64,000 bases of DNA from Thermoplasmata archaeon (GCA_030038655.1 JASHSP010000113.1:5420-69419); one strand, 5' to 3'. Shown: positions 7,354-35,033, counted from the first letter of the stretch. Program-made: numbers and translations. Notes: a model not told the origin generated them from the sequence alone.

Positions 7354-7436
7354 ACCGGGGGACCCGCGAGCTGCATCGTATCCCCGCGGGCGCTCGCCCA
7401 AGCCTCGGTGGCCGGGGCCTCGAAAAACCGGGCAAC

Positions 7437-7447
7437 GTTCTTATACG
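7437..7447 (+). promoter_or_regulatory. Archaeal TATA box (TTCTTATAC) for the thermopsin-domain surface protein gene
   Basis: An AT-rich TTCTTATACGA sits ~27 nt upstream of the ATG at 7471, consistent with a leaderless mRNA. Confidence 0.4.
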
Positions 7448-7470: not shown

Positions 7471-10400
7471 ATGACCGGTCTACGGTCTGTGCGGAATCGC
7501 GTGTGGCTGCTGCCGATCGTCCTCGTCGTTTGTGCCCTGATGCTCTCTCCCGCCGGGGGGCTCCTCGCGGCGCGGAGTGCCTCGTCAGCGACCCTCGCCG
7601 CCTCGCTGTCCGCGGCGGCGTCGACCGGTGGCACGGGTTCGATGCACCTGCCGAGCCTCCTGCATTCGTCGCTCCCGAGCTCGCCGGCGGGCCCGGCGAT
7701 CGCTCCGACGCTCCTCGCTGACGCCTCCGGTTTCAACGGCGGTCTTTCCGCCTCCCCGTCCCCCCCGCTCGGCGCCCGGTCGGGCGGCTCGAACGCGCCC
7801 TCCGGCGTCCCCGCTGTCGCGACCGACGTTGCGTCCTCGACGCCCGGCTGGGTCGCCAGCGTGGATCAGTCGATCGCGGACGGCCAGGTCCCGGCCTCCG
7901 CGGCCTACCTGCCCAGCCTCTCGCTCCTGAACGAGCATGTTTCGACCCCGAGCCAGGCCGTGAGCCCGATCGTCACGGTCTCCCCCGCGCCGATGGGGAT
8001 TGCGGACTTCGGACTCAGCGCCAACGGTCCCTACAGCGTCTACACTCAGGGCGTCGCGGGCGGCATCCAGCTCTCCGGCTACAACGCCACCGCGGGCACC
8101 ACCTACGAGACCACGGGAGCGTACTACTGGGACGGGCTCAGCCCGAACGCGGTGGTCACGCCCTGGCAATCGGGTGTACAGCTCAACACGGTCCTCAACA
8201 ATGTTTCCTATCCGGGGTCGGACATCGGCGCGTTCTGGACGCAGAACGTTCTCGATTTCTCCGGCAGCACGCTCCAGTTCATCGACAACGTCTGGAACCT
8301 TTCCTCGCCCGGGGCCGCCATGGAGTACGGGACCATCTACTCCGGGAACGGTGTCCTCGTTCCGGGCGAGCTCTACTACGACTACGGCCCGACCCTTCCG
8401 CTCTCTTTCCCCCTGACGATCAACCTGTACAACAACGCCTCGATCATTGACGGGCGATCCGCGCTCACCTTCGGCTACCGGGTGGTCGAAGGGGCGACGG
8501 TGTACACGGGCGTCTACGACACCGTGGTGTTCAACTCCCAGCCGACGGTCGTCGACCCCCTGCTGACCCCGGATTACCTCATCTCCGGATTCAACCTTGC
8601 GCCCGACAACTTCCTGCTGGACGATGCCGAGCTCGTCTTCGGAGGGCCCGGCGGCGGCTCGAACGCCGAGATCTCCTCGATGTCGGGGGACCTTTCCCTC
8701 GCGTTCCTGAACGGTTCCGCCTGGGAACCCGCTCCCTCGGCCTACGACTACGGAACCGATACCGGCGAGACCGCCATCGGAATGGCGGCCACGTGGTCGG
8801 GCACGAACGAGTCGGTGAGCCAGGGCCCCTCGATCCTCTACGGTCTGTGGAACACCACCTACAGCGTGCCGAGCGGCCAGGTGCCGTTCGTCGGGCACCT
8901 CGACCCGTCGTACGGCTTCGCGTTCATCGGCCTCTACGGGACAAACACGACGAACCTCAGCTACGCTCCGTCCGCGGCGAACGGCACGGTTCTCACCTGG
9001 CTTCCGCCGTCGATCGTCTTCAACCTGACCGTCTTCGCCGACGGTTTCTCGGAGCTCAACGCGACGTTCGAGGGCGCGGTCAACGCCGAGATCGACCTGG
9101 TCTCCTCGCCGGGGACCTGGAACGCGCCGCTCTACATGAACGGAGACGTACAGGCCGCGGCGCTGGCCCTGGATACCCTGGGCGAGAGCTCCGCGCCGTA
9201 CGAGTTCTACAACCTGAACGTCTCGGTCAACCAGACGTTCAACCACGTCAACGACTACTACTACCCGACCTTCGACCTGCTGTGGGCGTACGGCCTGACG
9301 ACCCCGCTGGCCGTCGACAACATCAGTCAGGGCGGTGACGCCCCCAACGGGGACACGTACTACGCCCCCGACTACAACGGCTCGGGCGAGAACCTGCCCT
9401 ACTTCGGGGACGAGATCGCCGTATGGTCCAGCCCCTCACCCTTCTTCGAGAATCTCTTCCTCCCCGGCTACCTCCTTCCGGCCGGCACGGACGGCGGCGG
9501 CGCCATCGCCCTGTGGAACGACAGCGACGCGTTCGGCTACAACCTCACGAGCGTCGACGACACGTTCGGCCTGTGGGCCTCCGACTCTCCGTTCACCGCG
9601 GAGGTCGACTCGGTCGCGTACCTCGGTGCGGTCGCGCTCACGCTGATGGCCTCGGCGTACGCGTTCACGTACAACCTCTCGGCCTTCGGATTTGCCGCGG
9701 ACGTACTCGACGAGGGAGGGCTCTACGGGGATCTGGACCAGCTCAACGCCACGGGCTTCTCGGACGGCGTGGTCACGTACGGGACGAACGACACCGGGAT
9801 CTACCAGCTGAACGCGACCGAGGAGTCGGTGGCAGCCGACCTGGAGTTCGGCTCGGGCCTCTACGTCTACGCCGTGAACGCGAGCTTCGAATCGGTCGGC
9901 GTCGAGGGCCTCGGCCTGAACCTCTCGAGCGTGTACGACGTCGCGATCGGGACGAGCGAGTTCGACCCCGGCGTCGTGCTTGAGGAGAGCAACAACTCGG
10001 TGGTCCAGAACGTCTACGGGAACTCGTCCGAGGGCTACGGGGTCCTGCTCCTCGGCGATGGCATATCGACCGTCACCAACGTCACGGCCGTGAACGACTC
10101 GGCGGGGGTCATCGTCGAGGACTCGTACGGACCGGTCGGCGTTGACCAGGTGGTCGCGAACGACAGCGTCGGCGTCGCGATCGGGTTCAACGCGGTGCTG
10201 GCCACCGTCACGGACGTGAACGCGACCAACGGGTCGATCGGGGTTGAGTCCTACGAATCGTTCGACGTCGAGGTCCGTGAGGTCAGCGCCTCGGGTTTCG
10301 CGGCGCAGTCGAACATCGGAGTGGACGTGCTGGTCTCCGAGGCCGTGGACGTCTCCTACGTCTCCGCGGAAGGCGGTTCGATCGGCGTGGACGTTTCCAG

Positions 10401-12747
10401 TTCGTACGACGTTTCCATCGCCAACGTGACGGCAACGTACGGCGCGCTCGGGGTCTGGATCGACCCGTCCGCGTTCGTCTACGTCACCGGGACCGTCGTC
10501 AGCCAGGAGGCCGCCGGAGTCATGGCGGAGGACTCGACGGACCTCTGGATCAACGATACCAACGTCTTCGCCGACTCGTTGGGCGTTCTCGAGGAGGACG
10601 GCAGCGAAGCCCGGATCTCCAACACGAGCGCCTCCGATTTCTCGCTGGGGGTCGGCGTGGTCGGGTCGAACGCCAGCTGGGTCAACTCAACCGACGTTTC
10701 CGGCCTCGCGATCGGGGTCGGCATCGAGTTCAGCACGGGGATCCACGTGGACGGCGTCACCGCGACGGGGTCGGGCAGCCCCCCGTCGCCTTGGCTCTAC
10801 CAGTACGTCTGGGGGGTGCCGACGTCCGCCGTCGTGACCTACGAGACGTTCCAGAGCACTGTCTCCGACGTCGTGGCGAGCGGCTACCCGGCCGCGCTCT
10901 ACGACAACTCCTCGAGCGTGCTCGGGGTCCAGTCGGTCAACGCGTCCGGGGGCGACTTCGGGATCGTGTTGAACGGCACCACCGGCAGTGTTTTCGCCGG
11001 AATTCAGGCGTATCAGGACCAGGTCGGCCTCCAGATGAACTGGGCCGTCTACTTCGACTACGAGTACGAGGAGTACGTCTACGCGAACGCCTCCGACGAC
11101 GTCGTCACCGGTAGTTCGTTCGTCGACTGCGTCGGATTCGGTGTCGACATCACTCACGGCGTCGACAACACCGTCTACCTCAACGATTTCGTCGGCGACA
11201 ACGGCGCCACCTCGACCTACAGCGCGGCCCACATCCAGGCGTTCAGCAACTCCGCCTCGAACGAGTTCAACAGTTCGAACGAGGTCGGCAACTACTGGGC
11301 CGACTGGCATTCCTACACGGACGGCGTCCTGAACCCGTACTACCTTTCGAACGGGACGTGGGACTACCACCCTCTCGGTGCGATGGAAGGGGCGTTCTTC
11401 GTCACGTTCTACGCGTCGGGGCTGGCGTCCGGGACCTCCTGGTCGGTCACGCTCGGGAACACGACTCAGAGCTCGGTCGGATCCTGGATCACCTTCGTCG
11501 AGTACCCGGGCACCTACGGGTTCACGGTCGGGGCGGTGCCGGACTACGAGATCACCCCCGCCGCGGGATCCGTCGTGGTGTCGACCGGCCCCGTCGCGCA
11601 GACGATCGAGTTCGCGGCCACCTACCACGTGACCGTCAAGGAGACGGGGCTCGCCGCCTCGACTTCCTGGAGCGCGTTCTTCGGCGGCGTCGAGAAGTCG
11701 ACCTCGGGAACTTCGATCGCCTTCACCGAGACCGCGGGCACCTACTCGTTCCAGATCCCGGGCGTGGGGGACTACACGCCCACCCCGGCCAACGGAACCG
11801 TGACGGTGACGGGCAATTACACGCTCTGGATCGCGTTCTCGTCCCCGACCGTCTACACGGTCTGGGTCAACGAGACCGGGCTATCGGGCGACGTCACGTG
11901 GTCCGCGATCTTCAACGGGGTCGAGGAATCGACCGGCGGCACGTCGCTCGCCTTCTCGGTGCCGGCGGGGACGTACTCCTACCAGATCGGTTCGGTGGCG
12001 GGGTACGCCGCGTCGCCTTCGGCCGGTTCGGTCGGCGTGAGCGGCAACTTCCTCCTGCTCGTGACCTTCTCGTCGACCACGGGGCCGACGTACTCGGTCA
12101 CGATCTCGGAGTCCGGGCTGCCGGGCGATACCGAGTGGTCCGCGATCTTCAACGGGATCGAGGAGTCGACCAGCGGCACGTCCCTCGTGTTCACGGTGGC
12201 CGCCGGAACGTACAACTACCAGATCGTCGGGATCGCGGGCTACACGGTCTCGCCGTCCGGCGGCTCGGTCACCGTCGGCGGGAACTACGCGCTCGCGGTC
12301 GCGTTCTCGACGGTCAAGTACGCGGTCACGGTCTCGGAGACCGGGCTCGCGAGTGGCACCGTCTGGTCGGCGACCGTGAACGGCGTAACGCAGACCTCGT
12401 CGGGGACCGAGATCACGTTCTACGAGCCGAACGGCACCTGGTCCTTCTCGGTCGCGAGCGTGAGCGGCTACTCGCTCACGGGCGGGTCGGGGTCGATCCC
12501 CGTGTCCGGGTCGTCCGCGGGAACGTCGGTCGCGTTCACCCCGTCGAGCTCGCCGTCGTACGTCGGAACGTCCACGTACAACACGGGCTTCGACATCGCT
12601 CTCGCCCTGGCGGTCGTCGCCCTGCTGGTCGCGCTGTTCGCGCTCCTGCGTCGCCCGCGCGCTCCGCCTCCGCCTCCGGCCGCCCAGTGGCAGGAGCCCG
12701 AGGCGGGCGCAGGCGAGGAAACGTCGTCTACGACGGGTACCCATTAG
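7471..12747 (+). CDS. Giant cell-surface glycoprotein: signal peptide, thermopsin-like (peptidase A5) domain, parallel beta-helix region, five ~85-aa Ig-like TGLxxGTxW repeats and a C-terminal TM anchor
   Basis: The ORF track starts at 7408; the ATG at 7471 (MTGLRSVRNRVWLLPIVLVVCALML) follows the TATA box. The N-terminal domain matches thermopsin as recalled (PAPMGIADFGLS, TLQFIDNVWNLSSPG, DDAELVFGGPGGGSN, DYGTDTGETAIGM). The middle shows a repetitive GVxV/NxS beta-helix pattern. The C-terminal repeats (YxVTVxETGLxSGTxWSAxFNGVExSTSGTSxxFTV.AGTYSYQI) are followed by FDIALALAVVALLVALFALL and a charged tail. More than 60 NxS/T sequons are present. Confidence 0.75.
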   Translation: MTGLRSVRNRVWLLPIVLVVCALMLSPAGGLLAARSASSATLAASLSAAASTGGTGSMHLPSLLHSSLPSSPAGPAIAPTLLADASGFNGGLSASPSPPLGARSGGSNAPSGVPAVATDVASSTPGWVASVDQSIADGQVPASAAYLPSLSLLNEHVSTPSQAVSPIVTVSPAPMGIADFGLSANGPYSVYTQGVAGGIQLSGYNATAGTTYETTGAYYWDGLSPNAVVTPWQSGVQLNTVLNNVSYPGSDIGAFWTQNVLDFSGSTLQFIDNVWNLSSPGAAMEYGTIYSGNGVLVPGELYYDYGPTLPLSFPLTINLYNNASIIDGRSALTFGYRVVEGATVYTGVYDTVVFNSQPTVVDPLLTPDYLISGFNLAPDNFLLDDAELVFGGPGGGSNAEISSMSGDLSLAFLNGSAWEPAPSAYDYGTDTGETAIGMAATWSGTNESVSQGPSILYGLWNTTYSVPSGQVPFVGHLDPSYGFAFIGLYGTNTTNLSYAPSAANGTVLTWLPPSIVFNLTVFADGFSELNATFEGAVNAEIDLVSSPGTWNAPLYMNGDVQAAALALDTLGESSAPYEFYNLNVSVNQTFNHVNDYYYPTFDLLWAYGLTTPLAVDNISQGGDAPNGDTYYAPDYNGSGENLPYFGDEIAVWSSPSPFFENLFLPGYLLPAGTDGGGAIALWNDSDAFGYNLTSVDDTFGLWASDSPFTAEVDSVAYLGAVALTLMASAYAFTYNLSAFGFAADVLDEGGLYGDLDQLNATGFSDGVVTYGTNDTGIYQLNATEESVAADLEFGSGLYVYAVNASFESVGVEGLGLNLSSVYDVAIGTSEFDPGVVLEESNNSVVQNVYGNSSEGYGVLLLGDGISTVTNVTAVNDSAGVIVEDSYGPVGVDQVVANDSVGVAIGFNAVLATVTDVNATNGSIGVESYESFDVEVREVSASGFAAQSNIGVDVLVSEAVDVSYVSAEGGSIGVDVSSSYDVSIANVTATYGALGVWIDPSAFVYVTGTVVSQEAAGVMAEDSTDLWINDTNVFADSLGVLEEDGSEARISNTSASDFSLGVGVVGSNASWVNSTDVSGLAIGVGIEFSTGIHVDGVTATGSGSPPSPWLYQYVWGVPTSAVVTYETFQSTVSDVVASGYPAALYDNSSSVLGVQSVNASGGDFGIVLNGTTGSVFAGIQAYQDQVGLQMNWAVYFDYEYEEYVYANASDDVVTGSSFVDCVGFGVDITHGVDNTVYLNDFVGDNGATSTYSAAHIQAFSNSASNEFNSSNEVGNYWADWHSYTDGVLNPYYLSNGTWDYHPLGAMEGAFFVTFYASGLASGTSWSVTLGNTTQSSVGSWITFVEYPGTYGFTVGAVPDYEITPAAGSVVVSTGPVAQTIEFAATYHVTVKETGLAASTSWSAFFGGVEKSTSGTSIAFTETAGTYSFQIPGVGDYTPTPANGTVTVTGNYTLWIAFSSPTVYTVWVNETGLSGDVTWSAIFNGVEESTGGTSLAFSVPAGTYSYQIGSVAGYAASPSAGSVGVSGNFLLLVTFSSTTGPTYSVTISESGLPGDTEWSAIFNGIEESTSGTSLVFTVAAGTYNYQIVGIAGYTVSPSGGSVTVGGNYALAVAFSTVKYAVTVSETGLASGTVWSATVNGVTQTSSGTEITFYEPNGTWSFSVASVSGYSLTGGSGSIPVSGSSAGTSVAFTPSSSPSYVGTSTYNTGFDIALALAVVALLVALFALLRRPRAPPPPPAAQWQEPEAGAGEETSSTTGTH
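11392..12560 (+). repeat. Five tandem in-frame ~255-bp coding repeats (Ig-like TGLxxGTxW module) inside the thermopsin-domain surface protein gene
   Basis: Nucleotide-level repetition is visible (..gagaccgggct..tggtccgcgatcttcaacggg.tcgaggaatcgacc.gcggcacgtc.ctcg..). It gives near-identical peptide repeats: ETGLSGDVTWSAIFNGVEESTGGTSLAF / ESGLPGDTEWSAIFNGIEESTSGTSLVF. Confidence 0.7.
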
Positions 12748-13008: not shown

Positions 13009-14202
13009 ATGGTCGCCCGAACCCGCCCCCCCACGTTTCGAGTCCTGGCCGCCTGGGAGCCTTCGTCGCCGCCGCATCGTCCCGCTCCCAGGCCGACCTC
13101 CGCGGCTCTCCCCCGAGTGGTCCTGTCGACCGGCCCCGTGACCCGTCTGACGCTGCGCATGGAACCGACCGCCCTCACTCTCTACCGGAAGGACGGATCC
13201 CTGTCGCTGCCCGGGCTCGAGTTCTCCGCCGCGATCGCGCTCCCTCCGATGGACCTCGCGCCACCTCCGGCGCCGCCTCCGGCCCCCGCGGAGACCTCTC
13301 GCGGGCCGATCGTACTCGAGCCACCCGACGCGCCGCCGCATCCTACTGAGTCCACTGGCTCTCGCGCCGAGGTGCCGGTCCTCGAGAGTGCCATCCCGGA
13401 CACAACGCCAGAGTATCTCGAACCGCTGACCGTCATGGCGGACGAGCCTCCGCCGGAAAGTCCGGCGCCGGAGAAGCAGGCGGGTTCGCCGCTCGTCGCG
13501 GCGGAGCTTCCGGCACCGCCCTCGGCGCCGCCCGACGCCGGGGGCCCTCCGACGATCCCGACGCCGGGACTTTACGACCTACCGGCCCTCCTTGCGCGAA
13601 TCCTCTCCGTCTCGGCCGGCCTGCGCGCCGCGGGCGAGATGCGACTCGGGGTGCGGGAGGCTCCGTCCGCAGCGCCTCCGTCACCTTCCGCGGCTCCCGG
13701 GCCGGAGCTCGCGACCTCGGTCGGGGCGTCGAATCCGGCGCCCGTTCCTCCCGAGGCACCGGCCACGGAAGAGTCGCCGGCCCCTCCCGCACCGATACTG
13801 GCCGCGCTTCCGGTCTTCCAGTGGCGGGACTGGCACCGTCCGGCGTCCCATGCCCACGACGAGTCCCGCGCCGAACCGGCTCCTCAGGCGGAGGTCGTGA
13901 GCTATTCCCGCTCGACGGCCCGCAGGGAACCTACCGTGCCGGCGACGACCCCGTATCCCCCGGCCGCGAGCACGTGTCGGTGCCCCCAATGCTATCGCGC
14001 GGATCCCCCTCCGCCGCTCCGGGGGGTCCTCGCCCGTCGACGGCACCTGCGATTCGAGTACTCGTCGGCGATCTCGAAACCCCATCCGCCGCCGGAGGAA
14101 TCCGACGAGCCCGGCGGCCTGGTCCCGCTGGCACGGCCGGCGCGGTACCGGTGGCGAATGTACCGGGACCGTCTGGAGGCCGATTCGAAAGACGACGGCT
14201 GA
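13009..14202 (+). CDS. Hypothetical Pro/Ala/Glu-rich low-complexity protein (possibly disordered, cell-envelope associated); gene status uncertain
   Basis: 397-aa ORF in the only sizeable gap of the island, with an AT-rich AAGTTATAG ~35 nt upstream of its GTG. Composition is PAPPPAPAETS/PEYLEP with a CxCPxC near the C-terminus. High GC could also generate this ORF by chance. Confidence 0.3.
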   Translation: MVARTRPPTFRVLAAWEPSSPPHRPAPRPTSAALPRVVLSTGPVTRLTLRMEPTALTLYRKDGSLSLPGLEFSAAIALPPMDLAPPPAPPPAPAETSRGPIVLEPPDAPPHPTESTGSRAEVPVLESAIPDTTPEYLEPLTVMADEPPPESPAPEKQAGSPLVAAELPAPPSAPPDAGGPPTIPTPGLYDLPALLARILSVSAGLRAAGEMRLGVREAPSAAPPSPSAAPGPELATSVGASNPAPVPPEAPATEESPAPPAPILAALPVFQWRDWHRPASHAHDESRAEPAPQAEVVSYSRSTARREPTVPATTPYPPAASTCRCPQCYRADPPPPLRGVLARRRHLRFEYSSAISKPHPPPEESDEPGGLVPLARPARYRWRMYRDRLEADSKDDG

Positions 14203-14488: not shown

Positions 14489-14525
14489 CCCTCCGCGCTC
14501 GACCTTCCCCCCGGGGGTCCGATTG

Positions 14526-15092
14526 ATGAAGCGGAACACGACCGCGCGCGGGACGTTCTATCTCGTCTTGGCGATCGCCACGTTCGCCGTGGTCGCGGGG
14601 TTCGCCCTCGGTTCTTTCACGTTCGGGAGCTTCGGTTTCATTCCCAAGCAGACGGGCGCCTCCGGCGTCGCCCCGGGTGCGCCGGCGGGAGTCCAGTTCC
14701 CCCTCGCGGAGGCGACGTTCGTGACGCCGAGCTCGACTCCGGCGACGGGGGCTTGCACCACCACCAACCTCGGCACGAACCTCACGCCCAATCACCTCAC
14801 GAGCGGCGCGGCCGTCGGGATCTGCCTCAACGCGTTCTCGGGGGGCTACCTGACCGGCGACACGATGTGGATCCTGGAGGTGCTGTGGAACACGAGCGCG
14901 ACCGTCTCGACGCTGTTCAACGTGAGCATCTTCGAGTCGACCACCCCGGCCACGGACAGCATCCTCGCGACCGCCTGGGTCGAGACCTCGGCTACGATCA
15001 CGGCCAACGAGACCGCGATTTTCGCGGTCGACCTGAGCCAGAGCACGATCTCCTCGGTCAACACGTTCAACGTGCTCGTCACCGAGGTCTGA
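14526..15092 (+). CDS. Small secreted/anchored protein with an archaeal pilin-like or SipW-type N-terminal signal (MKRNTTARG|TFYLVLAIATFAVVAGFALG)
   Basis: 188 aa (the ORF track starts at a TTG at 14523). A basic n-region and RG are followed by a long hydrophobic segment. The body is a Thr/Ser-rich beta-rich domain with several NxS/T sequons. No homologue recognised. Confidence 0.55.
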   Translation: MKRNTTARGTFYLVLAIATFAVVAGFALGSFTFGSFGFIPKQTGASGVAPGAPAGVQFPLAEATFVTPSSTPATGACTTTNLGTNLTPNHLTSGAAVGICLNAFSGGYLTGDTMWILEVLWNTSATVSTLFNVSIFESTTPATDSILATAWVETSATITANETAIFAVDLSQSTISSVNTFNVLVTEV

Positions 15093-15145
15093 GCCCGTCG
15101 GGGGTGCCCGCCGCCGTGCGGGGGGGTGAAGCGCGAGCGTCCGGG

Positions 15146-15874
15146 TCAACCCGACTTGCGCTGTGGACGGCCCGCCGAGCCCTTCCGAGATCGTGTCTCG
15201 GCCGCCACCTGTTCGTTGGCCTTCACGATCCGCGTTAGCTTCTCCGCGAATCGGGCGAGGTGGTCGCCCCGGATTCCGACGACCATCGTGTCGGCCCCCA
15301 GGTCCGTGTAGATCCGGGAGCCCGTGCACCCGAGCGAGATCGCCACCGGGGCACCCTGGTTCATGATCGGCACGATCGCGCACATCGGCCGCCCGTTCAT
15401 CGGAACCGGCTTCGCGTCGGTGCCGGCGCCCGCGGCCTCGACCGCCAGCATCGCCCCCTTCGGCCTCGCGAACAAGAGGACCGCGGTCGGGGGCATGCTC
15501 AGCGAGCCAAGCGGTCCGTAGGCGACGAACTTCGGCGCGGCGGCGTTGTGCGGGACGCGGGCTTCCTCGCCGGGATTGAGGTACCCCTCCTTCTGCATCG
15601 TGCCGAGCGTCGACATCAGCCGGCCCCCCAGCTCGCCCTCGGGAGGTATTCCCAGAACGAACGCGCCGATCTCGCACGCCGCGTGCTCCGTCAGGGGGGC
15701 GTAGAACGGCTTCTCGGTGCCGAACGCAAAGAAGGTGCAGACGGAGGGTACCCCTCCGGGGTGCTGCGGGACGCCGCTCGGGGGCTGGTCCAGGTAGGAT
15801 AGCTGGACGGGGGGACGGTCAAGTTCGAGCTGTCGGGCGAGCTGGATCGCTATCGTCCGGGACTCCGTCGTCAT
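15146..15874 (-). CDS. DUF169-family protein (COG2043)
   Basis: The ATG at 15872-15874 (MTTESRTIAIQLARQL...) gives a 242-aa protein resembling the DUF169 family (..CTFFAFGTEKPFYAPLTEHAACEIGAFVLG..PMCAIVPIMNQGAPVAISLGCTGSRIYTDL..). The upstream part of the 418-aa track ORF is Arg-rich artefact. Confidence 0.6.
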   Translation of the reverse strand: MTTESRTIAIQLARQLELDRPPVQLSYLDQPPSGVPQHPGGVPSVCTFFAFGTEKPFYAPLTEHAACEIGAFVLGIPPEGELGGRLMSTLGTMQKEGYLNPGEEARVPHNAAAPKFVAYGPLGSLSMPPTAVLLFARPKGAMLAVEAAGAGTDAKPVPMNGRPMCAIVPIMNQGAPVAISLGCTGSRIYTDLGADTMVVGIRGDHLARFAEKLTRIVKANEQVAAETRSRKGSAGRPQRKSG

Positions 15875-15975: not shown

Positions 15976-16515
15976 TCAAGCCGAGGGCAGCAGCAGCGGG
16001 TCGCCGCAGCCGGACGACTGCTCGGTTCCCGTGATCGTGACGACGATCACCGTCGAAGCGCCCCGGCATGCGTTCCCGGCGGTCGGAGAGAGCCCGATCA
16101 CGCCCTGGTAGGAGAACGTTCCGCCGGAAGCGAGCTCGCGGGGGGGAGAATTGGGAAGGTTGTCGGTGTAGGTGAACAAGGGGCACGCGTGCGGCTGGCC
16201 GATGCTGATGGACTGGGAAAGGGTCACGGCCACGCTTCCGACGTTCGCCAGGACGGCGTTGATCGTGCACGAGGTCCCGGGAGCAAGGACGTCGGCCGTC
16301 GCGGTGAGCGTGGACGTCGTGAGGCTCAACTGGCAGTGCACGTACGCGGCGTTCCCGACCGTGCTCGAGGGGTTCTTCCACTCGATCTGAAGGGTCGGGC
16401 ACTTCGAGTCGTCATGCCCCTGGTTGCACCCGGACCCCCCACCCCCGCCGCAGGCGAACGCCACCCCACCGGAAGCGGCAATGACGACGACCACCAGGGC
16501 CAGCAACTGTTTCAC
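15976..16515 (-). CDS. Small secreted Cys-containing protein (signal peptide MKQLLALVVVVIAASGGVAFACGGG, possible lipobox), last gene of the SipW-like operon
   Basis: 179 aa with an N-terminal signal peptide, a Gly-rich linker and a beta-rich body with 8 Cys. It is co-directional with and immediately downstream of the TasA-like genes. Confidence 0.55.
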   Translation of the reverse strand: MKQLLALVVVVIAASGGVAFACGGGGGSGCNQGHDDSKCPTLQIEWKNPSSTVGNAAYVHCQLSLTTSTLTATADVLAPGTSCTINAVLANVGSVAVTLSQSISIGQPHACPLFTYTDNLPNSPPRELASGGTFSYQGVIGLSPTAGNACRGASTVIVVTITGTEQSSGCGDPLLLPSA

Positions 16516-16641
16516 ACGATCATCCTCTCACAGTCCGGAAGACGCTCCGTACGCGAACGAGCCCCACGCCGGGCGAATGGTGGGTCGGGGCCCCCGTACC
16601 GTCCGCGCCGGCCCCTCGGTGCTCGCTGCCTGCGGACAGGC

Positions 16642-17202
16642 CTACGTCCCGGCCGACCCGGTCAGCGTCACCACGAAGGTGCAGTTCTCGCCCGCGCCCA
16701 GGTTGCTCGCGCTCGGCAGCAAATGGATGAACCCGGCCCACTGAATCGATCCCGTCGCCGGCACGACGTGCGTCTCGGCGCTCGTTTGGCCGCCCTCGCC
16801 GATCGTGACCGCCGGAGAGAAGAAATTGTCCCCGAACACCAGCACGCCACAGAGAGCACCCGACACGCTCGTGACCTGTTCCGAGACGGTCGCCGGGATC
16901 GACCCGAGGTTCGTGAGGGTGTCCCCGTAGCTGCAAATGTCGCCGGGAAGCAGGGTGTCGGCGGTCAGATAGAGGGTGTCGTCCGGCAAGTGGGTCGCCG
17001 GCCCGAGCGATGCGAAACAGACGTCGTTCGGCTCGAATCCGCCGTAGGCCGGGTCCGGGCCCCATACAAGGGGTCCCAGGGTCCCGGCCCGGGCGCCGCC
17101 GTCGACGTACGCCGCAGTCGTGAAGGCGGCGAAGCCGGTGCCGACGGTGGCCAGCACGGCCACCACGACCAACCCGGTCGTCGCCGCCTTCGTTAGGCGC
17201 AT
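16642..17202 (-). CDS. TasA/camelysin-like secreted protein with SipW-cognate-type signal peptide (paralogue 1)
   Basis: The N-terminus MRLTKAATTGLVVVAVLATVGTGFAAFTTAAYVDGGARAGTLGPL resembles the B. subtilis TasA/camelysin N-terminus (..GGGTWAAFND..ATFASGTLDL) and the TIGR04088 SipW-cognate signal class. It is about 185 aa and ends TLTGSAGT like its paralogue. Confidence 0.65.
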   Translation of the reverse strand: MRLTKAATTGLVVVAVLATVGTGFAAFTTAAYVDGGARAGTLGPLVWGPDPAYGGFEPNDVCFASLGPATHLPDDTLYLTADTLLPGDICSYGDTLTNLGSIPATVSEQVTSVSGALCGVLVFGDNFFSPAVTIGEGGQTSAETHVVPATGSIQWAGFIHLLPSASNLGAGENCTFVVTLTGSAGT

Positions 17203-26580: not shown

Positions 26581-29273
26581 CTACAGATTCCCGGGCTTGC
26601 GGCCCCCGCGCAGGGCTCCGGCGAGGAGGCCCAGCGTCAGTATCGAGATCGCGCCGACTCCCGCCAGTCCGAGCGTCGGTGAGGCATCGAGGGTGCGCGC
26701 CGGCCCCGCGCCCGACGCCCCGCCGCCCACGGCCGAAGCGGGTGCCGACCCCTTCGCGGTGAACGTCACGGCCACGGACTCACCCGCGCCCACGATCTTC
26801 GCCGGACGGGGCGAACCGGCGCTCTTGTATCCGGTCTCGGCCCCGATCGTGTAGGCGTAGGTCCCGTTCGGTTCGTTGAACACGATCGTGGTCGAGGTCG
26901 ACGACTCCTTCGCGCCCCGGACCGTCACGGACCACGACGTGCTCGCGGGAAGCCCCCGTTCCGTGAAGGTGAGCGAGTAGTAGTACACATACTTCAACGA
27001 GACCGAGATCCCCTTCGACGCAAGGCCGAAGGTCCCGGAGAGCGGGATCGCGGCACCCGCCACCTTCGCGGTGATCGTCTGCCCGGCGAGCAGGCGGACC
27101 GAGTACGCGTAGGAGCCGGGCGTCAGGTTGAGATAGCTCAGTCCTGCCGTGGTCGAGCACTGTCCGTCCCCGCCCAGGGTCACGCACCACGACTGGCCCT
27201 TGGGTAGCCCCGACTCGCCAAAGTGGATGGTGTACGTGGGGCCCTTGACGAACGTGAACGAGACCGTCTTCGACGACCCGCTGATCACGATCGTTCCGCT
27301 CGGAGCCGTGCCCGAGACCTGGTGGCCGGCGGGGCCCGCGATGAGGTAGACGTACGACCCGTTGGAGACCCCGAAGCTCGTGGACGAGGAAGTGAGCGAC
27401 CGGACCGTGCCGTTCAGGACGACCGTCCAGGATTTGCCCGTGGGCAGACCGGTCTCGGTGAACGTTATCGACTGGGTCACCGGGCCGAACGTGACGGACT
27501 TGGCCGTGCCTGCCCCGTCGATGGTGAACGATCCCGGGGGAGCGTCGAACTTCTTCGCCGTGGTCCCGATCGAGTAGAAGTACGTCCCGTTGGGTTCGAC
27601 GAACGCGATCGCCGTCGTCAACGAGGAGAACGACTGGCCGTTCGTGAGGTTGACCCACCACGTCGCTCCGACGGGCATGCCGGTCTCGGTGAACAACACC
27701 GCGTACGTCACGAGCGTGAACGTCACGCTCTCGGAAACCGTAGCGCCGTTCACCGTGAACGAGCCTCCGGGAGCCTCGAAACTGGTGTTCGCGGACCCGA
27801 TCGAGTAATCGTACGTCCCGTTCGGTTCGTAGAAGACGATCGAGGCGCTGGTCGAGCTGAACGACCCGCCCCCCGTCAGGTTGACGAACCACTCGGTTCC
27901 GAGGGGCAATCCGGATTCCGTGAACGAGATCGAATAGACCACGAGGCCAAACGGAACGGCCACGACGATCGGCTCGCCGTTGATCCCGAACGACGAGGGC
28001 GTCGCTTCGTAGCTCTTGTTGGCGGTTTGGACGACGTACGAGAAGGTTCCGTTTGGAGAGACCGTTGCGATCGAGGTGCCGGTCGAGGTCAGGGGCGCCT
28101 CCCCCGAGATGTTGACCCACCACTGAGTCCCTGCCGGAAGGCCGGTCTCGTTGAACGTCACCGCGTACGTCACGAGGGAGAAGGGGATCGGCACCGACAT
28201 CGACGACCCGTCCACGACGAACTCGCCCGGCGCCGCCTCCCAGCTCTTGTTCTCCGAGCCGATCACGTACGGGTAGGTCCCGTTCGGCAGCGAGGTCGTG
28301 ATCGTGGTCCCGGTCGATCCGAACGGAGGCTCGTTCGTGATGTTCAGCCACCACTGGGAGCCGGCCGGAAGGCCGGTCTCCGTGATCTCGATGGTGTAGG
28401 TCACCAGCGAATACGAGACGGTCTTGGAAACGCCGGCGCCGTGGATCGAGAACGAGCCGCCCGTCGCCGCGTACTCCTTGTCGACAGTTGCCACCGTGTA
28501 GGTGTAGCTGCCGTTCGTTAGCATCTCGGAGATGGTCGTCGTCGTAGAACTCGCCGGCGGCGCACCGCTCACGTTGACGAACCACTGGGTGCCGGGGGGT
28601 AGGTGCTTCTCGGTGAAGGTTGCCGCGTAGGTCTGGAGAAGGAACACGACGGTCAGGTTGATCGCGGCGCCGTCGACCATGAACGAACCGCCCGGGGCGG
28701 CATACTCCTTGTTGGTCGTCCCGATGGTGTAGGTGTAGCTGCCGTTCGTCAGCTGAGCGGAGGTCACGTTAGCGGTCGTGCCCAGAGACGGGCCGCCGGA
28801 AATGTTGGCCCACCACTCAGTGGAAGCGGGCAGTCCGGATTCGTTGAACGTCACCGCGTAGGTCACTAGTGTAAAGGGGACCGGTATGGTAACGGCCGCG
28901 CCGCTCACCGTGAACGAGCCGCCGGACGCCTCGTACTCGTTGTTGGTCGAGGAGACGTTGTAGTAGTATAGCCCGTTCGGCAGCGCGGTCTGGATCGTGC
29001 TGCCCGACGAGCCGAACGGGGGTTCGTTCGATATGTTGACGAACCACGTGGTGCCGCTGGGAAGATTGCTCTCAACGAACTTGACCGTGTAGATCGGATT
29101 GCCCAGGGGATGCGGCCCGCCGACGGTGGTGGCGGGTGCTCCCGCGCTCGACGTGGTCGGGACGGACGGGGCGCGGCCGGGCGATGTGACCACGTTCCCG
29201 AAACCTCCCGAGACGGCCATCAGGGTCACGATCGCGATCGCCGCTACTGCGAGGCTCACTCTCATCGACATTG
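26581..29273 (-). CDS. Surface glycoprotein built almost entirely of nine tandem ~95-aa Ig-like repeats (YxVTFxESGLPxGTxWxVNxxG), with C-terminal TM anchor
   Basis: Start at the ATG at 29271-29273 (MSMRVSLAVAAIAIVTLMAVSGG signal); the ORF track starts at 29340. Repeats: VKFVESNLPSGTTWFVNIS / VTFNESGLPASTEWWANIS / ATFTEKHLPPGTQWFVNVS / IEITETGLPAGSQWWLNIT / VTFNETGLPAGTQWWVNIS / ISFTESGLPLGTEWFVNLT / VLFTETGMPVGATWWVNLT / ITFTETGLPTGKSWTVVLNG / IHFGESGLPKGQSWCVTLGG / LTFTERGLPASTSWSVTVRG. A Ser/Gly/Ala linker precedes the C-terminal GLAGVGAISILTLGLLAGAL-RGGRK. Confidence 0.75.
26770..29035 (-). repeat. Tandem ~285-bp coding repeats (9-10 copies) within the repeat-only surface protein gene
   Basis: Periodic peptide repeats with conserved LP.GT.W..N and PNGTY.Y.I motifs, kept at both nucleotide and protein level. 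This is the substrate for copy-number variation by slippage or recombination. Confidence 0.65.
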
Positions 29274-30299: not shown

Positions 30300-33200
30300 G
30301 TGCCTGGGGCGATGCGCGACCGCAACCTCGCGCCCTTGGCCGTTGCGGTCGCTGTGGTCTTCCTCCTTCTTGGTTCGGCGAGCCCCGTCGAGGAGCTGCG
30401 AAGTACCTCCGCGTCCGAGGCGGTCCTCAATGAGGCGAGTGCGGCGGTGGGGTCAACTTCCGAGGTTGCGGGCATGGTTCCTGCAGCCGCGCACGTGGGC
30501 GGCGGTGGATCAACCGGGGCGGCCGAGCGCTCTTTAGCGTCGGGGGTTGCGCAGTCGGGTGGCTTCCCGCACGCCGGGCCCGGGCCGTTCACAGTAACGT
30601 TCGTTGAGGGAGGGTTGCCCAGCGGGACCGACTGGTTCGTCGTACTGAACGGGTCGAACGGGTCGTCGTCCGGAACATCCGTGTCGTTTACGAATGTTAC
30701 GCCGGGCGTCGTCGCCTACGAAGTACTTCCGATACACGGGTACGGGGTCGTCCCTTCCAACGGTACGCTGACGATCGCGGCCAACCTTACTCAAGGGCTG
30801 ACGTTCGTCCCTGTTTCCCCTCACCCCGGCACTCTCGAAGTGTACGAGGACGCCCCCGGCGGGGCCCCCACCGTGGACCCGGCCATTTCCTACCAGACGA
30901 CGGGGCTTGAGCCGATCAGCAACGTGTACGAGACCCTGATCACCTACAACGGCAGCAGTGGAACGGATTTCGTGCCGACGCTCGCTACGTGCGTCCCCGG
31001 CACCGCCCAGTGTGTTACCGACTACCACTCCACCCTGATCCAAGACGGAACAGGGGCCTTCGCGGGCCAGCCCGAGTACTGGACGTTCGTTATCGATCCG
31101 AACGCCCGATTCTACGATCCCTCCACCCATTCGTCCTGGCCCGTGTACCCCTCCGATGTCGTGTTCTCGATCGCTCGGACGTGCGCGTTCGCCGACCTCC
31201 CCGTTGTCTACGACGACCCTGGCTGGATCCAATGCCAGTCCCTGCTATCGCGCGGCAACCCGAACTGGGACAGGTCCGGTGGAAATGGATCAGGAATCCA
31301 TTCCCCGTACAACAACACGCCCTCCAACATCCTCGGATCGATGCTCGTGAACGACAGTCGATACTGTCCGGCTGCCGCCCTCGTGTCCGCTCATGGCTGC
31401 ATCACGTTCCGGGCCGAAAGCAACAACCAGACGTGGCCTTACTTTCTCGAGCTCATCGCCGATCCGCTCGGCGCGAGCATCGTCCCGTGCGGCTGGTTCA
31501 CGTACGAGACCGGGGGAATCCCGGGGTGGACGGGGACATCCGCACCCAAGGGCGACGGATCGTGTCTCCTGCCCGACCGGGGAACGACGACGAACTCCTC
31601 CGCGTGGACCGCGTACCTTTCCGGACTCAGTCCGACCGGCTGGGATTCGTTCGAGAAGCTGGCGTACAACTACCCCGCGGTGCAGCCTCAGGTACAGTGG
31701 GACATGGTGGGGTCCGGTCCGTACTCGGCCAGTATCGATCCGGGGGTCTCGTATCAGCTGACGGCCAGCCCCGCCTACGAACAACCCGCCGCCTGCTCCG
31801 CTTCCAGCGGCGTGGCGGTGTATGGCGGGACGTGCGATCCTCCGCCCGGGAGTTTCCCCGGATCGGTCGAGGTCACGTGGGAGAACAACACCAGCCTGGG
31901 GCTATCCGCGGTGGCGGCGGGCCAGGCCGATTTCGCGGAGTATCAGGTGCCGCAGACTCCGGACGTGGTTTCCCTCGCGAGCGACGGTCTCGCCACGTTG
32001 ACCCGTGTGAACACGATCAGTTCCTTGTTCCTTCCGATGGATCTTAACTGGAGCGACTCTCAATACATGGCGGCCCACCTCCCCGGCACCCCGAACATCC
32101 CTGCGAACTTCTTGTCCGGCTTGGCCGCGAGGCAGCTCCTCGTCCACGCGTACCCCTATACCACGATCGAAAACACGGTCGCGACGGTGGACGGTATTCC
32201 GTACGCGAACGAGGAAGGAGGACCGATTCCGCCGGGGATGTCGGCGTACTACCCGACGAACGTTTCCTTCCCGGCGGGAGATCCCGATTACAATCCGACC
32301 GACGTTGGCGGTGCGGCGTGGTGGTGGTCGGTGGGGACCAATTCGAGCTCCCCCTACTACGATGCGGAGCTCGCCGCGTGCACCGTGGGGAGCCCGTGCC
32401 GCTTCCCCCTCGCTGAGGACATCGGTCAACTGATCGGTGGCGCAGCATACGCGGACTGGATCGACGCAATCGAGAACATCACTTCGGGTGCAGTCCAGCC
32501 CACCGCGATCAATCTGACCTACGCTCAAGTGTTCAACGTGAGCTACGGCCAGCCACCGGGAGAAAACGCGCTGCCGGTGTCGGCGCTGGGATGGGCCCCC
32601 GACTACTTTGATCCGACCGACTACGTAGGCCCCCTTGCAGCCCCGGGGGGACCCTTTGTCTCCTCCGATGCCGTGAGTGAGCAGCTTGCGCTCCCCGCCT
32701 ATGACGACACCAGCGGCTGCCATCATTCCTCCGGAAGCTTCGCTGACCTCGCCTACTGGGCGAAGCAGGGCACCCTCGCGGAGGTGTGCCAGGGGGTCGC
32801 GTATCAGACCGCCGTCGACTGGATGAACACGGCGGAGGTGGACGCCAACGAGTCGTCTCGTGCGGTCGACTACGATCTGGTCGAGAGCATCCTGAACGAG
32901 CTCGCTCTGTACGTATGGCAAGGTCAGCTGAACGACGAAGTGCTCGCCGCGCCCTGGATTGCGGGAGACTCGATCAACGAGAATCCCATGATCGGCGGAA
33001 GTGGTTCCGAGCTGTGGTACGACGTCCAGTACCGGACGTCGGCCCCGGCTCCCGCGACCGTCTCCGTCGGCAGCGGACCGGACGCTGTGGTCTACGACCC
33101 CGCGAACGGCGATGTCTACGCGGCCAACTTCTACTCGGGCACAGTGTCCGTAATCAACGCCACCACGCAGTCGGGGGTCGCGACCGTGGCGGTCGGGGCG

Positions 33201-35033
33201 GGACCCCGGTCGCTCCTGGTCGATCCTTCGAGCGGTTCGGTCTACGTCGCCGACCTGAACTCGAACTCGATCACGGTGATCAACGCGACTACGAATACGC
33301 CCGCGGCGACCGTACCCGTGGGGGACCTCCCGTACGCTCTCGCCCTTGACGGGTCCGGCTCCCATGCGTCCGTTTACGTCGCCAACTACGGATCCTCCAC
33401 CGTAACCCGGATCAACGCGAGCTCGAACGCCGTCCGGTCGACGATCTCGGTAGGAAGCTATCCCGAGGTCCTCGCCGTGGACACGACAAACGCGGACCTC
33501 TTCGTCGCGAATTTCGTTTCCGGCAATGTCAGCATCATCGCCGGTTCTACCGTTACCGCGACGGTCCCCGTCGGGCGATTTCCGGAGGCGATCGGATTCG
33601 ACCCCGCGACGAACGAGGTCTACGTTGCCAACTCGGGGTCCGACAACGTGAGCGTGATCTCGGGGTCGTCACTGACCACGAGCGCGACGGTGACGGTCGG
33701 CGGCGACCCCGGTTCGGTACTCTACGACCCCGTCGGCCAAGAGCTCTACGTGGCGAACTTTGGGTCCGACAGCATCAGCGTCATCAACGGGACGACCCAC
33801 GCGGTCGTCACGACAGTCGAAGTGGACCCGATCGCGATGGCGGTCAACCCCGTGAACGGGGACGTGTACGTCGTCGACTCGGGAAACAACACGCTCTCCA
33901 TCATCTCCGCCTCCACGAACACCGTCTCCAGCACGGTTTCGACGGGCAGCGAGCCGACCGCGTTGGCGGTCGATCCCACGTCCGGATCGGTGTACGTGGC
34001 CAACGAAGATTCGGGGAGCGTGTCGGTCGTGCCCCCGCTCGAATCGATTCGAGTCACCGAGGTCGGGCTGGCGTCCGGGATACCGTGGTGGTTCGCCCTG
34101 ACCGGTCTGTTCTCGCGCTCGACCGACCCGGTCCAGCCGTTCGACGAGCCGTCGGGGACGTACGCGTTCGAAGCGGGGGCGGCCTGCTACGACGCGAGCC
34201 CTAACCACGGCACGGTCCTGGTCGGCGCGACGGGGGCGACGGTGACGATTGACTTTACGCCGGTCAGCTGCTACCCGATCACCCTGCACGAAGCGGGGTT
34301 GCCGAAGGGGAGTTCGTGGTCCGTGGCGAACAACGACTCGACCGTCATCGGGACCGAGAAGCTCGTGCTCTCCGAGCCGGAAGGCCCGTTCAGTTACACG
34401 ATCGTTCCCCCCGTCGGGTACGGCGTCGCGAAGGTGGCGGGTCCGGGCGAGCCGAACCAAACCTCCGGAACCGAGGCGGGCGCACCGGTAACTTGGACCG
34501 TGACGTTCGGTGCGCTCGAGTCCCTCTACTTCAACGAGACCGGCTTGCCGTCCGGCACGCCGTGGGCCATCGAGCTGACTCCTGCGCTCGCTCACGGGGG
34601 CCCCGCCGCTCAGGCCGCGAGCTCGGTCGAACCGTCCGTCGACTTTGTGGCCCCTAAGGGCGCGAGCTTCCGATTCGTCGTAAGCGCGCCATCGATCTAC
34701 CTTCCGGGACACGCCCACGGCATGGTCGGTGTCGCGGGCCACGCGACCACGAAGAAGATCGCGTTCGTGCTGTTGACCTCGAAGATCGTATTCAAGGAGA
34801 GCGGTCTCCCCGAGCGCACGAGCTGGTCGATCACCGTCGTGGGCACCGATGCCGCCGGTGTGAAGTGGAACGAGACGCTGAGCGAGTCCACGCCGACGAT
34901 AACCTTCCGGCTTCCGAGCGGCGCCTACGCCTACACGGTCGCCATGATCACCGACCGAACGCCGTCCTCCGCCGGAGGTACGCTATCGGTGGCGTACCCG
35001 ACGCCGCAGACATTCCTGATCTCGTGGACGTGA
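30300..35033 (+). CDS. Giant secreted glycoprotein: signal peptide, family-5 solute-binding-protein (OppA/DppA-like) domain, YVTN beta-propeller repeats and TGLPxGTxW Ig-like repeats; no C-terminal TM
   Basis: The probable ATG is at 30312 (MRDRNLAPLAVAVAVVFLLLGSASP). An SBP_bac_5-like segment follows (LEVYEDAPGGAPTVDPAISYQTTGLEPISNVYETLITYNGSSGTDFVPTLATCVPGT). YVTN repeats come next (GSGPDAVVYDPANGDVYAANFYSGTVSVINATT..). The C-terminal repeats are VTEVGLASGIPWWFALTG, ITLHEAGLPKGSSWSVANND, YFNETGLPSGTPWAIELTP and VFKESGLPERTSWSITVVG. Confidence 0.7.
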   Translation: MPGAMRDRNLAPLAVAVAVVFLLLGSASPVEELRSTSASEAVLNEASAAVGSTSEVAGMVPAAAHVGGGGSTGAAERSLASGVAQSGGFPHAGPGPFTVTFVEGGLPSGTDWFVVLNGSNGSSSGTSVSFTNVTPGVVAYEVLPIHGYGVVPSNGTLTIAANLTQGLTFVPVSPHPGTLEVYEDAPGGAPTVDPAISYQTTGLEPISNVYETLITYNGSSGTDFVPTLATCVPGTAQCVTDYHSTLIQDGTGAFAGQPEYWTFVIDPNARFYDPSTHSSWPVYPSDVVFSIARTCAFADLPVVYDDPGWIQCQSLLSRGNPNWDRSGGNGSGIHSPYNNTPSNILGSMLVNDSRYCPAAALVSAHGCITFRAESNNQTWPYFLELIADPLGASIVPCGWFTYETGGIPGWTGTSAPKGDGSCLLPDRGTTTNSSAWTAYLSGLSPTGWDSFEKLAYNYPAVQPQVQWDMVGSGPYSASIDPGVSYQLTASPAYEQPAACSASSGVAVYGGTCDPPPGSFPGSVEVTWENNTSLGLSAVAAGQADFAEYQVPQTPDVVSLASDGLATLTRVNTISSLFLPMDLNWSDSQYMAAHLPGTPNIPANFLSGLAARQLLVHAYPYTTIENTVATVDGIPYANEEGGPIPPGMSAYYPTNVSFPAGDPDYNPTDVGGAAWWWSVGTNSSSPYYDAELAACTVGSPCRFPLAEDIGQLIGGAAYADWIDAIENITSGAVQPTAINLTYAQVFNVSYGQPPGENALPVSALGWAPDYFDPTDYVGPLAAPGGPFVSSDAVSEQLALPAYDDTSGCHHSSGSFADLAYWAKQGTLAEVCQGVAYQTAVDWMNTAEVDANESSRAVDYDLVESILNELALYVWQGQLNDEVLAAPWIAGDSINENPMIGGSGSELWYDVQYRTSAPAPATVSVGSGPDAVVYDPANGDVYAANFYSGTVSVINATTQSGVATVAVGAGPRSLLVDPSSGSVYVADLNSNSITVINATTNTPAATVPVGDLPYALALDGSGSHASVYVANYGSSTVTRINASSNAVRSTISVGSYPEVLAVDTTNADLFVANFVSGNVSIIAGSTVTATVPVGRFPEAIGFDPATNEVYVANSGSDNVSVISGSSLTTSATVTVGGDPGSVLYDPVGQELYVANFGSDSISVINGTTHAVVTTVEVDPIAMAVNPVNGDVYVVDSGNNTLSIISASTNTVSSTVSTGSEPTALAVDPTSGSVYVANEDSGSVSVVPPLESIRVTEVGLASGIPWWFALTGLFSRSTDPVQPFDEPSGTYAFEAGAACYDASPNHGTVLVGATGATVTIDFTPVSCYPITLHEAGLPKGSSWSVANNDSTVIGTEKLVLSEPEGPFSYTIVPPVGYGVAKVAGPGEPNQTSGTEAGAPVTWTVTFGALESLYFNETGLPSGTPWAIELTPALAHGGPAAQAASSVEPSVDFVAPKGASFRFVVSAPSIYLPGHAHGMVGVAGHATTKKIAFVLLTSKIVFKESGLPERTSWSITVVGTDAAGVKWNETLSESTPTITFRLPSGAYAYTVAMITDRTPSSAGGTLSVAYPTPQTFLISWT

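Follow-up and report, generated by a model that had tools for sequence, protein, structure and literature searches.

Is the DNA that separates the aconitase gene from the tRNA-Arg gene in a Thermoplasmata archaeon a hypervariable envelope island, and what do the large proteins encoded there have in common? We analyzed a window of 64 kb (~70% GC; GCA_030038655.1, JASHSP010000113.1:5420-69419), the whole stretch to which all coordinates below refer. Aconitase lies on the left flank of its ~28-kb interval, and tRNA-Arg, followed by GatD/GatE, on the right. An initial annotation, made from the window's sequence, had proposed a hypervariable cell-surface glycoprotein island built from a shared Ig-like repeat. 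Our analysis revealed that this description is largely correct and that its evolutionary claim was overstated. The interval combines things of already-known kinds, a surface-protein cluster and a flexible tRNA-adjacent site; it is an ordinary flexible region and calls for no new mechanism. The by-product is a large uncurated domain family, defined by a 77-residue repeat.

The host is a high-GC soil Thermoplasmata archaeon akin to the Lutacidiplasmatales/UBA184 group. Published Lutacidiplasmatales genomes originate from acidic soil and have a GC content of ~69%; thermopsin and S53 acid peptidases for secretion, together with transporters for peptide import, are reported among their products (PMC9287336). 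As relatives, we used 80 GatD loci from a scan of species-representative genomes, labelled with L-numbers. Seventy-seven of them are titled Thermoplasmata, Thermoplasmatales, Thermoplasmatota, or Lutacidiplasma(tales), the remaining three "bacterium," "Methanobacteriota archaeon," and similar, and the majority of titles indicate soil or peat metagenome-assembled genome (MAG) projects. The closest relative is L082, with a GatD identity of 86%.

Four large proteins carry copies of one 77-residue repeat

Do the four large proteins of the interval, here called A to D, share a single module? Their open reading frames (ORFs) lie where the initial annotation had placed them, except that C starts at 29271 and not at 29273. 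The probable ATG starts of A and C are at 7471 and 29271, and translation of C from 29271 gives NCBI protein P0001 (896 aa) exactly. GC content at third codon positions (GC3) is of the coding type in all four ORFs (0.82-0.92). Their layout is as follows.

7471-12747, + strand: protein A (ORF opens at 7408); signal anchor, thermopsin, beta-helix, five repeats of the putative stalk, C-terminal transmembrane (TM) anchor
11395-12549, + strand: five 77-aa repeats of A, A1 to A5 (aa 1330-1714), located with a repeat hidden Markov model (HMM) in a six-frame scan
12589-12648, + strand: C-terminal TM anchor of A (aa 1728-1747), FDIALALAVVALLVALFALL and then RRPR, from a hydropathy scan
23512-26394, - strand: protein B; signal anchor, YVTN propeller, three repeats at 23614-24339 (aa 686-927), no C-terminal TM segment
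26581-29271, - strand: protein C; signal anchor, ten repeats, C-terminal TM anchor, no head domain
26752-29091, - strand: repeats of C (aa 84-863)
26611-26673, - strand: C-terminal TM anchor of C (aa 890-910)
30300-35033, + strand: protein D; signal anchor, one repeat, SBP5-like domain, YVTN propeller, four repeats
30588-30812, + strand: N-terminal repeat of D (aa 97-171)
34041-35030, + strand: C-terminal repeats of D (aa 1248-1577)

An HMM seeded with seven copies of protein C only detected copies in A, B, and D at independent E values of 1e-6 to 1e-14, which bears out the claim that one module is common to the four proteins. The total is 23 copies, distributed as five in A, three in B, ten in C, and one N-terminal plus four C-terminal copies in D; the six-frame scan revealed no further copies elsewhere in the window. 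The repeat is shorter than the 85 to 95 aa first given for it: its commonest period is 77 aa (231 nt), with a range of 75 to 87, and the 231-nt period is exact across C1 to C7. The consensus reads YxVTFxExGLPxGTxW...PNGxYxY...GSxxVxG...VxF, with W and G invariant. N-glycosylation sequons occur at fixed columns of the repeat, as PNG[T/S] in 11 of the 23 copies and just after W-x-V in 7 of them. The conserved residues are core or structural ones (W, G, and aromatic strands) together with these glycan sites, and not a surface patch.

The repeat is predicted to fold as a beta-sandwich

What kind of domain is the repeat? An AlphaFold2 (AF2) model based on the 23-copy alignment is an eight-strand all-beta domain with a mean pLDDT (predicted local distance difference test score) of 96.9. 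Searches of Pfam, NCBIfam, and PDB sequences gave no match for C or for any single copy, and Foldseek with the repeat model gave none in PDB at E ≤ 1e-3. The best Foldseek matches in PDB, with TM-scores of 0.57 to 0.67, were the transthyretin-like domains of carboxypeptidases D/N and CnaB-type pilin/adhesin domains; SpyCEP, CBM20, and the NOMO/BOS-complex sandwich were also in this set. The sequence profile of the repeat showed weak matches to SpaA-like prealbumin and CnaB domains. These data suggest that the 77-aa repeat is most likely an autonomous eight-strand beta-sandwich of the prealbumin/transthyretin-like kind. The term "Ig-like" is apt only in the loose sense of a beta-sandwich; in structure, the repeat comes closest to prealbumin/transthyretin-like and CnaB domains.

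The repeat resembles prealbumin/transthyretin-like domains (CarboxypepD_reg, CnaB/SpaA, and NOMO1-like) in size, in its predicted all-beta Greek-key sandwich, and in its apparent use as a tandem spacer in extracellular proteins. It differs from them in that the Pfam models of that clan detect none of the 23 copies, with no significant sequence or Foldseek E value, and in its GLPxGTxW and PNGTY motifs and built-in sequons, which belong to the 77-aa repeat family specifically.

One other named family was considered. The InlB B-repeat/Flg_new_2 family (PF18998) is likewise a tandem repeat of ~70 aa in surface proteins, the NCBI label of one Cuniculiplasma homologue of our repeat is "InlB B-repeat-containing protein," and PF18998 is reached by 2 of 39 homologues. 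We rejected this identity: at E ≤ 10, PF18998 and PF09479 failed to match any of the 23 copies, no InlB entry appeared in the PDB sequence and fold searches, and the model is all-beta with eight strands. The InlB B-repeat has a beta-grasp fold.

Different heads and common export features

The module is joined to different heads in the four proteins, as had been proposed: thermopsin and beta-helix in A, a YVTN propeller in B, SBP5-like and YVTN domains in D, and none in C. Matches to PF05317, PF05048, and TIGR02276 substantiate the thermopsin, beta-helix, and propeller assignments.

7963-8775, + strand: thermopsin (peptidase A5) domain of A; PF05317, E = 1.4e-55, 189 bits, cut-off 25
9766-10695, + strand: right-handed beta-helix (NosD/Beta_helix) of A; PF05048, E = 1.9e-14, and PF13229
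~24355-26112, - strand: YVTN propeller of B; TIGR02276, 209.7 bits, 8 stretches, cut-off 27.85
30813-33050, + strand: divergent SBP5-like domain of D (aa 172-917, 746 aa); homologues match PF00496
~33042-34034, + strand: YVTN propeller of D; TIGR02276, 191.3 bits, 7 stretches, cut-off 27.85

The thermopsin match in A spans profile positions 6 to 253 of 256 of PF05317 (MEROPS A5), and by this match the head of A is a predicted thermopsin acid protease. To our knowledge, the catalytic residues of thermopsin have not been defined. Lysine and arginine together make up just 1.0% of protein A versus 8.9% for aspartate and glutamate, an extreme acidic bias that fits an acid-stable extracellular enzyme. 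The YVTN region of B has a DNA period of 126 nt.

The SBP5 head of D had no direct counterpart: its central 746 aa gave no Pfam or PDB sequence match, and SBP5 was not reached even at E ≤ 5. Its homologues tell more. Twelve proteins are 43 to 53% identical to it over 95 to 99% of the region, 11 of these 12 match PF00496 (SBP_bac_5; best E = 1.5e-9), and a profile of the homologues matches the oligopeptide-binding protein AliB at E = 0.018. On the strength of the homologue matches, the SBP5 assignment is probably right.

Are A to D exported? Each has an N-terminal hydrophobic segment, and a C-terminal TM segment with a basic tail is present only in A and C. The density of N-x-S/T sequons is 2.0 to 2.8 per 100 aa versus 0.18 in 11 neighboring cytosolic proteins, that is, ~11 to 16 times that of the neighbors and 2.4 to 2.6 times the composition-shuffled expectation for each sequence. 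Hydropathy and sequon counts thus agree with the four signal segments, dense sequons, and two C-terminal TM anchors described initially. The proteins are also biased in composition, with a serine plus threonine content of 20 to 26%. In sequence, A to D have all the marks expected of proteins that are exported, N-glycosylated, and tethered to the membrane, and we predict that they are surface exposed and glycosylated.

The repeat family in public data

How widespread is the repeat? In a profile search against 1.84 billion representative proteins, it was found in 8,014 proteins at E ≤ 1e-3, of which 3,654 also passed E ≤ 1e-30, and a single protein can carry as many as 44 repeats. Among homologues that bear a name, the sources are Thermoplasmata, Thermoplasmatota, Cuniculiplasma, and Micrarchaeaceae MAGs. 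When 39 members were scanned against Pfam, the result was scattered matches to sandwich families (DUF1214, DUF7055, X25, NOMO1-like, Flg_new_2, and SpaA); such mutually inconsistent matches are the signature of an uncurated family. The 77-aa repeat is a large domain family absent from curated libraries.

Genuine heads in the 39-member scan were YVTN/NHL, sedolisin prodomain, and phosphoesterase domains. We examined domain architecture in 15 homologues. The array was always C-terminal to the annotated head (thermopsin, sedolisin prodomain, or phosphoesterase), several members were headless, and the array ended at a C-terminal TM segment in 12 of the 15. This position between head and TM anchor supports the reading of the array as a stalk. 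Sequon density in the 15 homologues was 2.4 to 4.9 per 100 aa. One headless member, Cuniculiplasma P0055, consists of 11 repeats and a TM anchor. Outside the genus, protein C itself has its closest homologue at 58% identity; no genome of the same species turned up, and no relatives of C were found in viral contigs.

Two members from Micrarchaeaceae MAGs (P0017 and P0058) have 9 to 11 repeat copies and a C-terminal TM segment. Since Micrarchaeaceae, members of DPANN, live attached to Thermoplasmatales, gene exchange between symbiont and host may have occurred.

Origin of the repeat arrays

How did the arrays arise? Copies C1 to C7 are mutually closest (40 to 57% identity), and so are A2 to A4 (53 to 62%); the copies of D are the most divergent. 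Grouping of the repeats by protein points to old tandem amplification in place. The sole cross-protein relation in the identity matrix is a three-repeat tail: B1-B2-B3 are collinear with C8-C9-C10, at 50, 44, and 46% identity, which indicates that this tail was duplicated between the adjacent genes B and C. At the DNA level, the copies are 60 to 75% identical, with no long near-identical repeat, which rules out recent recombination among them. The domain shuffling proposed initially is seen insofar as one module occurs with different heads; the repeats cluster by protein, however, and give no signal of ongoing shuffling.

B2 (23845-24099) and C9 (26980-27234) have a common cysteine pair (W-C-V ... 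Q/R-C-S). These are the only two cysteines of each protein, consistent with an extracellular disulfide.

A conserved backbone at a flexible site

Is the interval hypervariable? Its borders are the following.

4225-7353: aconitase, left border
35094-35202, - strand: tRNA-Arg(GCG) with a ~33-nt D-loop intron, conserved right-hand border of the variable region
35328-38539: GatD/GatE archaeal amidotransferase, right flank

All relatives retain GatD-GatE-HAD and the tRNA, and what lies between aconitase and the tRNA differs greatly. L046 and L047 have a gap of just ~0.4 kb. L045, L006, and L033 have an interval of ~2 to 4 kb, with a methyltransferase and 1 to 3 kb of small genes before the tRNA, and L026, L032, and L050 have a thermopsin-repeat protein in addition. 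Relatives at 77% GatD identity have A, the small genes, and a filament-type locus (described below), with no orthologues of B, C, or D. The interval reaches 28 kb in the window and >40 kb in L082.

L082 keeps A, the small genes, the filament-type locus, the methyltransferase, B, and C in the order of the window. Identities are 72 to 92% for most genes (DUF169 gene, 65%; gene 13009-14202, 62%), and the repeat arrays are collinear where visible. Orthologues of A are 72 to 87% identical in L082 and 50% in L004. In place of D, L082 has ~19 kb of different DNA, and the 10 kb of L082 beside the tRNA holds no D orthologue. This series, from nearly empty to >40 kb, indicates that the site is flexible across the order and that the end next to the tRNA varies even between members of one genus. 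Gene order and identity mark the backbone from A to C as vertically inherited. The content of the interval does differ among relatives, with 0.4 to 4 kb at this site in distant ones, but the word "hypervariable" overstates this, since the A-to-C order and the visible arrays are kept in the closest relative.

Compared with the window, L082 has extra genes for an HTH_29/HTH_32 protein (an IS630-like transposase N terminus) and an NAD-dependent epimerase (L082:12940-13959, 14896-15789). Its signal peptidase, DUF5305, A, and C genes are split by frameshifts that are probably long-read assembly errors.

Is the tRNA at the end of the island genuine? At the right border, neither ARAGORN nor Rfam at its gathering threshold called a tRNA. 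With the insert left in, Rfam in E-value mode gave a tRNA at 35094-35158 that scored 26.8 bits, short of the gathering score of 29; a perfect acceptor stem extends to 35202, and the D-loop holds an additional hairpin. When the ~33-nt D-loop insert was removed, ARAGORN called tRNA-Arg(GCG). Both exons are kept beside GatD in 79 of the 80 relatives, and the insert is more variable. The tRNA-Arg placed initially at the island end is therefore real. The intron position is noncanonical, and a TATA-like motif, TTTTATA, lies ~45 nt upstream.

In 7 of the 80 relatives, exact 19- to 24-nt copies of the tRNA-Arg 3' end lie 1.5 to 5.3 kb beyond the tRNA (L011:740-763, L022:7415-7434, L037:7737-7759 and 5635-5655, L053:6835-6853, L064:4421-4439, L074:8232-8250, and L075:5811-5832). 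The segments that they bound are 6 to 11 GC points below GatDE and resemble att scars of small cassettes. Ten ORFs from these segments include methyltransferase, AbiEii toxin, GNAT, and Kelch genes, with no integrase among them; the cassette of L011 is a single gene for a YVTN-repeat surface protein. These copies suggest that integration at tRNA-Arg contributed to turnover in the group, and the tRNA 3' end may be a capture site for short, integrase-less, low-GC cassettes.

A glycosylated stalk model and its alternatives

What might the arrays do, and how was the interval filled? We propose that the tandem arrays, with sequons built into the core motifs of the repeat (PNG[T/S] and N-x-S/T after W-x-V), would form a glycosylated, acid- and protease-resistant stalk between an N-terminal head and the membrane. 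A and C would be held by their C-terminal TM anchors, and B and D by the N-terminal signal anchor, or else released. Together with the locus of SipW-type signal peptidase (SPase), DUF5305, and small subunits, the stalk proteins would form a cluster for the cell envelope and extracellular peptide scavenging. The interval between aconitase and tRNA-Arg/GatDE would have been filled stepwise within the lineage, with the C array growing by in-place tandem amplification and the three-repeat tail duplicated to become common to B and C, and with the tRNA-proximal D as its most recent or most replaceable part. We regard this model as a whole, including the role of the cluster and its stepwise history, as reasonably likely; the stalk role and the order of acquisition are its conjectural parts.

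The architecture of protein A has a precedent. The Sulfolobus proteins SsMTP and SsMTP-1 (SSO2045 and SSO1175) comprise a signal sequence, thermopsin, tandem internal repeats of ~79 aa, and a C-terminal TM segment, and surface exposure and N-glycosylation are reported for them (PMC3958906). Protein A is built on this plan; as regards the repeats, the likeness is one of published description. Unlike the SsMTP proteins, A carries a beta-helix in addition, and its host is a mesophilic soil Thermoplasmata archaeon and not a crenarchaeon.

Four points weigh against the model. B and D have no C-terminal anchor, and their repeats are distal to the sole hydrophobic segment, so a simple role as membrane spacer does not fit these two proteins. 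Surface exposure and glycosylation are sequence predictions only. The comparison with L082 covers its island except for 11 kb (contig positions 22,156-33,219). Finally, gene gain and gene loss at the interval are not separable without a phylogeny.

Could the arrays instead be adhesive or recognition surfaces, for cell-cell contact, a biofilm matrix, or DPANN episymbionts, and the island an adhesion/biofilm locus? CnaB/SpaA-type domains are found in bacterial adhesins and pilins, and surface proteins with YVTN, PKD, and beta-helix domains have been proposed to serve cell-cell interaction in the Thermoplasmatales-associated ARMAN (PMC5498576). The repeat family has members in Micrarchaeaceae MAGs, a filament/matrix-type locus lies mid-island, and C is entirely headless. 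However, the family-wide position of the array, between catalytic heads and TM anchor, is that of a spacer, the conserved residues are structural ones and glycan sites instead of a surface patch, and no family member has a known binding function. We consider adhesion the less probable role, with perhaps one chance in a handful.

A second alternative is that the whole 28 kb is a horizontally acquired island inserted by an integrase at the tRNA-Arg 3' end. The region adjoins that end, the tRNA resembles an integration hot spot in that 7 of 80 relatives have 3'-end copies bounding low-GC accessory segments, and GC3 is slightly lower in D (0.82). Yet the window lacks a second copy of the tRNA 3' end, with up to three mismatches allowed, and domain searches of the island ORFs judged to be genes found no integrase or transposase, as the initial annotation had said. 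GC3 of A to C (0.88 to 0.92) equals that of the flanking core genes (0.89 to 0.91), and D is just mildly lower. The lower overall GC of A to C is due to amino acid composition (GC at first codon positions [GC1], 0.50 to 0.61), not to GC3, and a foreign origin of these genes based on their low GC can be rejected, since the deficit is in codon position 1 and GC3 is native. The A-to-C backbone is moreover inherited in L082 and in part in relatives at 77% GatD identity. Acquisition of the whole interval in this way is improbable. Archaeal flexible envelope islands such as those of Haloquadratum and the "metagenomic islands" of Marine Group II are likewise clusters of secreted glycoproteins with a fixed site and varying content; unlike them, the window has a backbone conserved at genus level and no sign of strain-level hypervariability, foreign composition, or mobility genes.

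Could the repeat simply reflect chance or low complexity in GC-rich genes whose products abound in Ser, Thr, and Gly? The 20 to 26% serine plus threonine content might point that way, but the idea is so implausible that we dismiss it, given an HMM from one protein that recovers copies in three others, invariant W and G, an exact 231-nt period, a confident fold prediction (pLDDT, 96.9), and thousands of homologues.

Candidate proteins of an exterior layer

Might the glycosylated stalk proteins also have a structural role? Thermoplasmata generally lack an S-layer, and the host archaeon, like other Thermoplasmata, probably does as well. Cryo-electron tomography of Cuniculiplasma and Oxyplasma revealed a ~20-nm unordered exterior protein layer in place of an S-layer, the protein identity of which was stated to be unknown in 2025 (PMC12448462). 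We tentatively suggest, as a possibility that we hold to be rather less than even, that anchored, glycosylated members of the large 77-aa family are the main building blocks of this layer. Speculatively, headless members such as C and Cuniculiplasma P0055 would be its bulk components. The family in any case supplies candidate exterior-layer proteins, including one from Cuniculiplasma. With a confident predicted fold, a head-stalk-anchor order, and thousands of homologues, the repeat is a domain family ready for curators, and it would hold an extracellular acid protease (thermopsin) and a domain for peptide binding at the cell surface of archaea that inhabit acidic soil and presumably live on peptides.

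The filament-type locus and other genes of the interval

The remaining genes between A and B are the following.

13009-14202, + strand: 397-aa gene; 62% identity to a 402-aa protein in the corresponding place in L082; no Pfam match
14523-15092, + strand: small secreted protein, 189 aa; orthologues in L004 (54%), L082 (88%), and L084 (56%)
15146-15874, - strand: DUF169 protein; PF02596, E = 1.7e-18
15976-16515, 16642-17202, and 17260-17811, - strand: three paralogous ~180-aa secreted proteins; common signal peptide and AGTLGP motif
17946-19470, - strand: DUF5305 protein, proposed signal-peptidase accessory subunit; PF17231, 32.9 bits, cut-off 29
19478-20836, - strand: archaeal-type (SipW-like) signal peptidase I; TIGR02228, 91.7 bits, cut-off 51.85
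20838-21539, - strand: winged-helix regulator; PF14947, E = 5.5e-9
21632-22372, - strand: conserved protein; orthologues near GatD in many relatives
22659-23456, - strand: S-adenosylmethionine (SAM)-dependent methyltransferase; PF08241, E = 4e-20; adjoins aconitase in relatives without the island

Is there a TasA/SipW-like locus mid-island, as had been proposed? AbpX/Tafi loci consist of small subunits, an archaeal-type SPase I, DUF5305, and a transcription factor, and the role of DUF5305 as a signal-peptidase accessory comes from the same literature (PMC11821415; bioRxiv 10.64898/2026.01.04.697558). Positions 15976-21539 of the window hold the gene set of such a filament locus, with a TIGR02228 SPase, DUF5305, and three subunits with signal peptides. 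Like TasA/AbpX/Tafi donor-strand filament loci, the window thus combines two or three secreted subunits of ~150 to 200 aa with a dedicated SPase I, DUF5305, and a regulator. Unlike in those systems, the subunits have no significant homology: their profile matches are weak only (AbpX, E = 0.53; camelysin/Peptidase_M73, E = 0.82), and the AF2 model of subunit t3 (pLDDT, 81) gave no TasA/AbpX-like match in a Foldseek search of PDB. The SipW-type SPase and DUF5305 fit the proposal, whereas TasA homology of the subunits is not demonstrated; by analogy of gene content, the three ~180-aa proteins are candidate TasA/AbpX-like filament subunits.

The gene at 13009-14202 has an atypical codon composition (GC at second codon positions [GC2], 0.65; GC3, 0.79), and its 62% identity in L082 marks it as a real gene. 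On the left flank, an ABC transporter (791-4594, + strand; permease at 1921-3585 and ATPase at 3575-4594) immediately precedes aconitase; the synteny of the two is kept in many relatives, which places the transporter in the conserved left flank.

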